DNA of 64,000 nt from Escherichia coli (GTDB lineage: Bacteria > Pseudomonadota > Gammaproteobacteria > Enterobacterales > Enterobacteriaceae): assembly GCF_003334785.1 (NCBI RefSeq), contig NZ_QOWV01000002.1; one strand, given 5' to 3'. Each line of letters starts with the position of its first letter. The first letter of the stretch is position 1. The notes beneath the pieces were generated by a model. The model searched no databases, was not told the DNA's origin, and worked only from the letters and a program-made list of their open reading frames with translations. Below are positions 2,883 through 3,120 of this stretch, in pieces. Position numbers and translations under genes: made by a program.

Positions 2883-3120
2883 TTTATCAATAGGCCGCAC
2901 GGTTGTTTGGTGGCGTCAAAATTGCCGAGGCGTTCCCTGAAGGCCGGGGCAGCCCACATGGATGTGGGCTGAGGGCGCGTTTTACAGGGATGTTACCTCG
3001 CGCCCGACCCGGTAGCCGTAAGGGATAAGTCGAGGGCACCGCGCAGCGGCGATTTTGTTCGCCAGAGCCCGGGGGTGCAGGGGGCGGCGGCGATTGGCCG
3101 CCCCCTGCGCGCTCCTTGCG
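2883..3120. other. GC-rich intergenic element with nested perfect palindromes; unassigned (structured RNA or extragenic repeat)
   Basis: Perfect inverted repeats cagcccacat/atgtgggctg (~2950-2972) and gggggcggc/gccgccccc (~3081-3107); the only ORF here (2887..3147 minus) is Pro/Gly-rich low complexity. Confidence 0.35.

Follow-up and report, generated by a model that had tools for sequence, protein, structure and literature searches.

What is the GC-rich, palindrome-dense DNA that separates dusC from yohP in Escherichia coli? In the window, the whole 64,000-nucleotide stretch of contig NZ_QOWV01000002.1 that was analysed, these convergent genes leave a spacer of 372 nt, for which the original prediction had offered three readings: a structured non-coding RNA, an unclassified extragenic repeat, or a recombination scar. 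The element in this spacer is almost certainly TRIP1c, a repeat already catalogued in E. coli K-12. Comparison with its relatives gives good support, at the level of sequence, to the view that TRIP1 is the DNA copy of a structured element of RNA type, ~265 nt long, read on the + strand of the window. TRIP1 has so far been treated only as a recombination substrate, and no function has been assigned to it since 1999. A fold selected across genera, a favoured strand and a core close to the Rfam family TwoAYGGAY now make its function directly testable.

Compensatory change and the folded strand

The + strand of the element folded to -138.9 kcal/mol (z = -4.53), a stability reached by none of 200 shuffled sequences; this was the folding check proposed at the outset, and it favoured structure. 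The - strand folded to -125.4 kcal/mol, again with z = -4.53 and no shuffle as good, so that the + strand was the better by 13.5 kcal/mol. Base pairing was then assessed in two samples of relatives. The first comprised 83 distinct genome copies picked by their loop pattern. The second, drawn from metagenomes, comprised 81 distinct copies, retrieved by a pattern in the 5' stem alone, independently of the loops, and aligned with a covariance model of the core. In the first sample, 89.6% of cells held standard pairs, compared with 38-46% when the partners were slid by 1-3 columns; 42 of the 73 pairs had changed on both sides, and the covariation score was 0.292, against at most 0.096 in the slid controls. 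In the second, 94.2% of cells were paired (33-44% when slid), 37 of 54 pairs were compensatory, and the score was 0.269 against at most 0.060.

On the + strand, G-U outnumbered A-C by 98 to 32 in the first sample and by 98 to 20 in the second, a ratio of between three and five to one. Because G-U exceed A-C, these counts point to the + strand, the sense strand of dusC, as the strand that folds, whether as RNA or as single-stranded DNA, and speak against a symmetric DNA cruciform. We consider selection on a single-stranded fold very likely. A neutral remnant or recombination scar, with a structure that is not selected, is by comparison scarcely credible. It would sit well with an element that neither RefSeq nor the K-12 record annotates and that has gone 25 years without a known function. 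However, 37-42 pairs carry compensatory double changes, pairing stands at 90-94% against ~40% for slid partners in two independent samples, and the family is conserved over at least 10 enterobacterial genera. The fold has been kept by compensatory changes across genera, and for practical purposes the covariation counts refute the scar.

The structure model was built from the K-12 fold, corrected by covariation and checked by hand, and the alignment was fitted to the model. RNAalifold run on the raw MAFFT alignment overlooked helices H2, P6 and P7 through misalignment, and was not used for the final structure. The ~265-nt fold consists of an irregular closing helix, P1-P5, which carries two apical hairpins, H1 and H2, and is followed on the 3' side by P6 and P7. 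All parts are given here on the + strand. Covariation supports the closing helices, which comprise 32 pairs. The 5' strands of P1b, P1 and P2 (GGTGGCG-T-CAAAATTG, 2909-2924) pair with 3050-3069, where the 3' strands of P2, P1 and P1b lie (CGATTTTG..CGCCA-GAG-CC). P1 and P2 were 97-98% paired across the 83 sequences, with seven of 13 pairs compensatory (for example TGGCG/CGCCA versus CCGGC/GCCGG), and behaved likewise in the independent set. The 5' strand of P3 (CC-GA-GGC, 2925-2931) pairs with 3029-3035 (GUC-GA-GG) around a tandem G-A/A-G; pairing was again 97-98%, four to five of the five pairs were compensatory, and the GA dinucleotides were conserved and unpaired. The 5' strands of P4, P5a and P5b (2934-2938, 2942-2944 and 2945-2948, with partners at 3021-3025, 3015-3017 and 3008-3011) lead into the two-hairpin junction.

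H1 (2950-2971), the first palindrome of the original prediction, has an 8-bp stem, seven of whose eight pairs were compensatory, and a loop AUGGAU (2958-2963) with GGA at 2960-2962. H2 (2973-3005) has an outer stem (2973-2979/2999-3005), an inner stem (2984-2985/2992-2993) and a loop AGGGAU (2986-2991) with GGA at 2988-2990. Among the 81 copies collected independently of the loops, the form A-N-GGA-Y was found in 76 for H1 and in ~70 for H2; the GGA was invariant, while any of the four bases could stand at position 2. The sequence CCGC-GCA-GCGG (3039-3049) is shown by covariation to be a hairpin of its own, P2a, rather than an extension of the outer helix. It was 99% paired, with swaps from CCGC/GCGG to UUGC/GCAA, CCAC/GUGG and UCGC/GCGA.

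The 3' domain varied in the same manner. P6 (3077-3108), the second predicted palindrome, is a perfect 12-bp GC-rich stem with an 8-nt loop and forms a hairpin in every subfamily. In strain EC36 it carries a double compensatory change, from GGGGGCGGC/GCCGCCCCC to GGGGGAGGA/UCCUCCCCC. P7 (3109-3158) pairs GCGCUCC (3109-3115) with GGAGCGC (3152-3158) around a variable inner hairpin. It was 92% paired, and its outer strands were swapped to CGUUCAC/GUGAACG and GCGCUCU/AGAGCGC.

TRIP1c at the dusC-yohP locus

Three TRIP1 repeats are known in K-12 (Li et al. 2024, Genes 15:236, PMC10888264, building on Rudd 1999): TRIP1a (915016-915281) between aqpZ and ybjE; TRIP1b (1080855-1081000) between putP and ycdN, with a 125-bp internal deletion; and TRIP1c (2229122-2229394), 43-44 bp past yohI/dusC. 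The E. coli series runs from TRIP1a to TRIP1e. The same authors, who surveyed E. coli alone and regarded TRIP1 as a DNA repeat promoting rearrangements, described GC-rich sequences (62-65%) with 'double-Y' RNAfold structures, reported inversions through recombination between copies, and noted that TRIP1 had no known function 25 years after Rudd 1999 (Li et al. 2024, PMC10888264). The present element is identified as TRIP1c because its coordinates and length, its GC content and its 43-nt separation from the dusC stop all agree with the published repeat. With the dusC stop as anchor (window 2845 = NC_000913.3 2229438), the published interval projected onto window 2889-3161 and coincided with the conserved block.

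The whole element, 273 bp on the + strand at 2889-3161, corresponds to NC_000913.3 2229122-2229394 on the opposite strand and was delimited by coordinate mapping, the family conservation profile and allele comparisons. The conserved block starts at ~2876-2889 and ends at ~3161 (GGAGCGCAAC); TRIP1d homology extends ~13 nt further 5' of 2889, to ~2876. The original prediction thus had the location right, between dusC and yohP, and the extent (2883-3120) wrong at one side, since an end at 3120 cuts the element inside P7. The predicted GC enrichment was borne out, at 0.60-0.72 over 2900-3149 against 0.32-0.38 in the flanks on either side. Both predicted perfect inverted repeats were present, CAGCCCACAT/ATGTGGGCTG at 2950-2959/2962-2971 and GGGGGCGGC/GCCGCCCCC, the latter growing to a 12-bp pair, GCAGGGGGCGGC/GCCGCCCCCTGC, at 3077-3088/3097-3108. 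Further pairs were found as well, with long-range arms at 2917-2932/3042-3057 and others at 3109-3116/3151-3158. It had also been said, correctly, that the element is no canonical repetitive extragenic palindrome (REP): no match to the REP-derived family naRNA4 was found in it, and its size and architecture differ.

A coding reading was rejected. The sole long open reading frame (ORF) to span the element runs on the minus strand (2887-3147) and would encode 86 aa; it is Pro/Gly-rich and of low complexity, as first described. A second candidate lies at the P7 3' strand, where 3152-3177 (AGGAGCGCAACAGGATG) holds a Shine-Dalgarno-like AGGAG with an ATG 10 nt on and a 3-codon ORF. The ORF has at least nine codons in sister copies, and the AGGAG is missing in other subfamilies; this mini-ORF was also rejected as coding, GUGAACGGAAC standing in its place in other subfamilies.

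A sister copy of ~94% identity was recovered independently between aqpZ and lysO (aqpZ-ybjE), together with a short copy between efeU and putP that retains the 5' strand and the 3' hairpins, the two-hairpin core being deleted. The copy number had been put forward for checking by BLAST: the segment was present in all 5,426 of 5,426 complete E. coli genomes, at a median of three places per genome, and was never annotated. With a more sensitive search mode, 10-13 TRIP1 places were found in each of two chromosome-sized records, one from E. coli and one from Klebsiella. The phage records searched by BLAST gave no TRIP1 match. The reading as an extragenic repeat therefore stands, but not as an unclassified one, since it has been published as TRIP1c. 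The covariation test, the strand assignment, the TwoAYGGAY/CsrA-type core and the survey beyond E. coli are absent from the searchable TRIP1 literature, in which no work joining TRIP1 with CsrA was found.

The gene order around the element is yohK, yohJ, dusC, yohP, mdtQ, yohF. The stop of dusC (yohI; 1898-2845, + strand) lies 43 nt upstream of TRIP1c, and the gene has the same orientation as the GGA-bearing strand. The convergent yohP (3218-3301, - strand), which encodes a 27-aa small membrane protein, has its stop 56 nt from the 3' edge of the element. The curated K-12 record has nothing annotated between yohP and dusC, and the YohP paper is silent on the intergenic region. Next to yohP, mdtQ (yohG, window 3435-4961) is a frameshifted pseudogene in the K-12 annotation and is intact in strain EC36.

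Relation to TwoAYGGAY and a possible CsrA dock

The Rfam scan suggested in the original prediction gave TwoAYGGAY (RF01731) as top match for the window copy over the full length of the model, at 29.7 bits (E = 0.026), short of the gathering score of 43. The copy from Citrobacter youngae was the best family member tested, at 42.7 bits against the same gathering score, while genuine Lachnospiraceae TwoAYGGAY score 80-88 bits in Rfam. In the reverse direction, a model of the TRIP1 core found one genuine Lachnospiraceae TwoAYGGAY over its full length at 38.6 bits (E = 8e-7). It also gave full-length matches of 34-47 bits in Thalassolituus, Oleibacter, a metagenome-assembled genome of Oceanospirillaceae, Pseudomonas sp. 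EpS/L25 and Psychrosphaera (35% GC). All model-confirmed matches fell within the Gammaproteobacteria or the Clostridia; the lineages matched have CsrA. Other weak Rfam matches in the region (AgvB, miRNA and snoRNA families) were put down to chance.

TwoAYGGAY was described as a motif with two AYGGAY loops and an often very long P1, found in Clostridia, Gammaproteobacteria and gut metagenomes (Weinberg et al. 2010), and was predicted to bind CsrA (Gardner & Eldai 2015). Rfam clan CL00106 (Csr/Rsm) holds both TwoAYGGAY and CsrB. Like TRIP1, TwoAYGGAY has two adjacent GGA-centred hairpins with six-base loops, an AG linker, a long closing P1 and a tandem G-A, which has been reported for that family; it too is multi-copy and occurs in head-to-head pairs (locus L202), and the two models detect each other. 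In TRIP1c, the H1 loop AUGGAU fits AYGGAY, whereas the H2 loop AGGGAU deviates by a purine at position 2. Unlike TwoAYGGAY, TRIP1 has the additional side hairpin P2a and a conserved 3' domain of ~90 nt, P6-P7. In the part of the Weinberg alignment that was searched, none of six enterobacterial genome records sought was present, including those of E. coli K-12, Klebsiella and Citrobacter. We regard the TRIP1 core as a probable member of the TwoAYGGAY structural class, in the position of a near-threshold relative. The reading as a structured non-coding RNA is favoured, at the level of sequence, by the covariation, the one-strand G-U bias and this near-threshold match.

The loop regions of H1 and H2 in TRIP1c (ACAUGGAUGU and UUACAGGGAUGU) have ACA-N-GGA-UGU in common. 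The second of these (2982-2993) agrees at 11 of 12 positions with RUACARGGAUGU, reportedly the consensus for CsrA from systematic evolution of ligands by exponential enrichment. The two GGA motifs are 28 nt apart, a spacing within reach of one CsrA dimer. From these sequence features we infer, tentatively and at somewhat below even chances, that TRIP1 may be a structured RNA module with a two-site dock for a CsrA dimer. H1 and H2, held side by side by the closing helix, would form the two sites for a single dimer, and the module would bind CsrA once the + strand is transcribed. In K-12, read-through from dusC would be the most plausible route, because no terminator-like site was found between dusC and TRIP1c in a simple, crude scan; where a strain has the allele inverted, transcription would instead come from yohP. 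Binding might slightly sequester CsrA from its mRNA targets, or recruit it to the 3' end of the host transcript. That TRIP1 has a measurable physiological role is unlikely in our estimate. Were the link to CsrA true, the function of the orphan Rfam family TwoAYGGAY would be settled too, and a repeat-borne component would be added to one of the best-studied bacterial regulatory systems; were it to fail, TRIP1 would stay an ordinary structured extragenic repeat.

A number of observations weigh against a CsrA dock. No evidence of transcription was obtained for TRIP1. In crude consensus scans, no sigma-70 promoter was seen to lead into TRIP1 and no intrinsic terminator to follow it; across the window and three head-to-head spacers, neither kind of site exceeded what shuffled sequence would give. 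Boxes for UvrY/GacA (TGTRAG-N6-CTTACA, up to two mismatches) were present upstream of three of 185 copies, compared with one of 185 in the downstream control. The peak table of CsrA crosslinking and immunoprecipitation sequencing (CLIP-seq; Potts 2017) held no TRIP1 peak by gene, by coordinates in both genome versions or by sequence, a negative that would also follow if TRIP1 was not expressed or if reads from 94%-identical copies were dropped. In the tables of the same study, dusC and ybjE are marked 'No' for CLIP and are unaffected by csrA. The lone 11/12 consensus match is not significant by itself, 0.65 such matches being expected per window, and one dimer site in each of only three copies would make a weak sponge.

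Orientation adds to this counter-evidence. At the TRIP1c locus, 2,952 forward and 2,789 reverse orientations have been counted, and both also occur at the TRIP1a locus (Li et al. 2024, PMC10888264), so that the two are about equally common at these loci. In K-12, the GGA strand of TRIP1a is antisense to aqpZ. Between co-directional genes, the element was sense at 15 loci and antisense at 12, which argues that the neighbours do not dictate the transcribed strand.

Two promoters picked by eye, TTGACA-N14-TATCAA in the window and TTGCTG-N16-TAAAAT in Citrobacter, failed on spacing or match. In the portion of the Term-seq supplements that was searched (Adams 2021), no 3' end was assigned to dusC, yohP, aqpZ or lysO.

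The structure and strand evidence would apply equally to a structured RNA with some other partner, be it another RNA-binding protein, a small molecule or an RNA, the CsrA likeness of the GGA loops then being coincidental. Such a partner would fit the lack of a CsrA signal in CLIP-seq, and the conserved P6/P7 domain and the tandem G-A, which play no part in the CsrA model, might find a use. However, there is no known candidate for such a partner, agreement with the CsrA consensus goes well beyond GGA in the loops, with ACA-N-GGA-UGU in both hairpins, and the Rfam curators put TwoAYGGAY in the Csr/Rsm clan. We hold this explanation to be quite improbable.

The decoy small RNAs of the Csr/Rsm systems (CsrB, CsrC, RsmX/Y/Z) resemble TRIP1 in presenting GGA in hairpin loops with CsrA-consensus flanks and in their Rfam clan; the proposed action, binding of a CsrA dimer, would be the same in kind. 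They differ in having ~9-22 sites, against two GGA hairpins in the TRIP1 core and three in a few relatives. Unlike a CsrB-like RNA, TRIP1 showed no UvrY/GacA box upstream and no promoter or intrinsic terminator of its own in the crude scans. TRIP1 is a dispersed repeat found in either orientation, with no CLIP-seq signal, whereas the decoys are single-copy regulated genes. A run of alternating GCCAUGGAUGGC and ACAAGGAUGU hairpins in Shewanella sp. UCD-KL12 (L237:1751-1900), which matched no Rfam family at threshold, looks like a CsrB-type multi-site decoy RNA.

It is doubtful, though conceivable, that TRIP1 and TwoAYGGAY together constitute one widespread class of portable, dispersed CsrA-docking modules, often in divergent pairs, in Gammaproteobacteria and Clostridia, which, on insertion or exchange at the ends of transcription units, would place neighbouring genes under CsrA or buffer free CsrA. 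If so, post-transcriptional regulation would have a layer carried by repeats, and the 25-year-old TRIP1 would have its function.

Distribution, alleles and insertions

Contigs representing one genome per species held 112 loci with the two-loop pattern, of which ~95 form one family. Its hosts are Escherichia (coli, albertii, whittamii and unnamed species), Citrobacter, Enterobacter, Klebsiella, Raoultella, Kluyvera, Leclercia, Silvania, Pseudescherichia and Pseudocitrobacter, with several copies per genome; in Salmonella, no locus matched the two-loop pattern. The putP-efeU site is also filled in Citrobacter werkmanii and in isolate RIT691, and the site downstream of dusC is filled in C. youngae. 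Despite these shared sites, copies are most alike within their own genome and not to copies at the orthologous locus in other genera, which points to old sites with homogenisation between copies (concerted evolution).

Among 62 family loci, 30 lie between convergent genes; the upstream gene is co-oriented at 45, and a gene 3' end lies on the far side at 42. Neighbouring copies within 700 nt were head-to-head in 41 cases and tandem in 27, and never tail-to-tail. The stable GC-rich fold is probably a 3'-end barrier for dusC and yohP. A more sweeping proposal is that TRIP1 is only structural punctuation of gene ends, acting by stability alone in the manner of REP and bacterial interspersed mosaic elements (BIMEs), whether by blocking 3' exonucleases, by causing pausing or termination, by insulating convergent genes from each other, or as a DNA cruciform or nucleoid-protein site, with orientation irrelevant. 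The preference for gene 3' ends just given would be expected of it, as would the position of TRIP1c close behind both the dusC and the yohP stop where neither gene has another terminator, the stability of both strands relative to shuffles, the tolerance of either orientation in nature and, at alx-sstT, an alternative allele in which another GC-rich palindromic repeat takes the place of TRIP1. What it leaves unexplained are the invariant GGA loops, the conserved unpaired purines, the G-U excess, the specific multi-helix architecture across distant taxa and the absence of tail-to-tail neighbours. We rate stability alone as an improbable account.

The same arrangement bears on a further rival, a selfish, non-autonomous repeat that would persist and spread by recombination, gene conversion or an unidentified transposase, its fold and conserved loops serving its own propagation (for instance if the folded single strand were recognised in the way of REPIN/RAYT or of IS200/IS605 ends) with no benefit to the host. 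Dispersal in multiple copies per genome, concerted evolution, tandem arrays, a bias to gene 3' ends and between convergent genes, and neighbour orientations that recall REP doublets all speak for it, as do the documented recombination between copies (Li et al. 2024, PMC10888264) and the replacement alleles described below, with both orientations at one locus. Against it, aligned copies showed no terminal inverted repeats (TIRs) or target-site duplications at their ends, no clean empty site was seen at three polymorphic loci, neither a transposase nor a reverse transcriptase accompanies the element, and phage records lack it. The members of head-to-head pairs (types A/B/C) are too diverged for a long hairpin of the REPIN kind. 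The same fold and GGA loops, moreover, span Enterobacteriaceae at 65% GC, Psychrosphaera at 35% GC and the Clostridia, which a conserved cellular partner explains more easily. A purely selfish repeat is a serious possibility, though in our judgement a rather unlikely one.

Alleles differed by replacement of whole intergenic regions. Strain EC36 carries an inverted element, of 91% identity, between yohP and dusC. Homology with K-12 ends at the dusC end and restarts just past the yohP stop, so that the whole dusC-yohP spacer is a different allele. The copy between lysO and aqpZ is forward in BL21 and inverted in RM9872; ST95-32 has the short form there, also inverted. A simple inversion of the segment was ruled out here, since the sequences between gene and element are unrelated between alleles; the alleles have been replaced. 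Between alx and sstT, some strains have TRIP1d and others a different GC-rich palindromic repeat. At none of these three loci (dusC-yohP, aqpZ-lysO, alx-sstT) was a target-site duplication, a TIR or a clean empty site found. In the K-12 alx-sstT spacer (L364:275-673), CCCTCTCCC..GGGAGAGGG..GGGGTGAGGG is repeated twice where other strains have TRIP1d; this repeat presumably resembles the boxC type.

Known repeats share several of these traits. REP/BIME and REPIN sequences are, like TRIP1, GC-rich extragenic palindromes at gene 3' ends, multi-copy and arranged in oriented doublets, and both REP and TRIP1 are recombination substrates and targets of IS110-family elements. TRIP1 is, however, ~8 times the length of a REP, which is one hairpin of ~35 bp, and has a multi-helix fold; its copies number 3-13 where REPs number hundreds, and no RAYT link is known for it. 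Klebsiella copies of TRIP1 adjoin REPs and are yet distinct from them. ERIC/IRU and similar miniature inverted-repeat elements are likewise structured intergenic repeats of Enterobacteriaceae that can be transcribed, 100-300 bp long and polymorphic between strains in presence and orientation. TRIP1 has no sequence similarity to ERIC/IRU and no TIR or target duplication; its conserved parts are the loops and junctions, not the ends.

The head-to-head pairs consist of diverged subtypes with a short conserved spacer (for example L147:6735-7358, L150:613-1237, L212:3738-4323, L229:1418-1903 and L202:9047-9490). This arrangement is also seen in genuine Lachnospiraceae TwoAYGGAY (L202), in Oceanospirillales and in Pseudomonas, while the K-12 copies stand alone. 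Tandem arrays were found with three units at a 225-nt period in Marinomonas ostreistagni (L204:6768-7320), two units 437 nt apart in Klebsiella pneumoniae (L004:2041-2771), and three units at a 653-nt period in a gut metagenome contig (L251:1871-3342).

Some copies have gained a third GGA hairpin, CCCCAGGGAUGGGG or GGCCCAUGGAUGGGCC. In others (L141:3252-3545, L176:1322-1615 and L194:8460-8753; also L201, L203 and L133), a nested insertion of ~90 nt interrupts the closing helix on its 3' strand and contributes a stem of its own (CAAAATTGCC..GCAATTTTG) as well as a third hairpin with GGA (CCCCAGGGATGGGG). In four metagenome contigs, an IS110-family element of ~1.39 kb (L301:5805-7195; also L276, L278 and L296) sits in the TRIP1 H2 loop (..ACAGGGAT | GTTACC..) at an identical point, across two TRIP1 subfamilies. 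Its 355-aa transposase scored 359.9 bits against the NCBIfam model 'IS110 family RNA-guided transposase'. TRIP1 seems to be a programmed target of this element, as REP is for IS621.

Additional sequence adjoins the element in several hosts. Klebsiella copies (L168, L170, L172 and L224-L227) usually have a REP-like sequence, ..CCGGCCTAC.., ~45 nt upstream and carry one of two conserved 3' extensions, so that the repeated unit is longer there and mosaic. In Escherichia sp. E1V33, a weak match to naRNA4 adjoins the element (L206:594-672). All seven copies in Enterobacter sp. ENT03 (L160-L166) share an extra 70 nt upstream, which includes the arms CTTACA and TGTGAG (L162:8313-8342 and the equivalent place in the others). 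The CTTACA-N6-TGTGAG of these copies was rejected as a UvrY box of the csrB kind, its half-sites being in swapped order, and is better described as a terminator-like hairpin with a T-run, aimed into the element.

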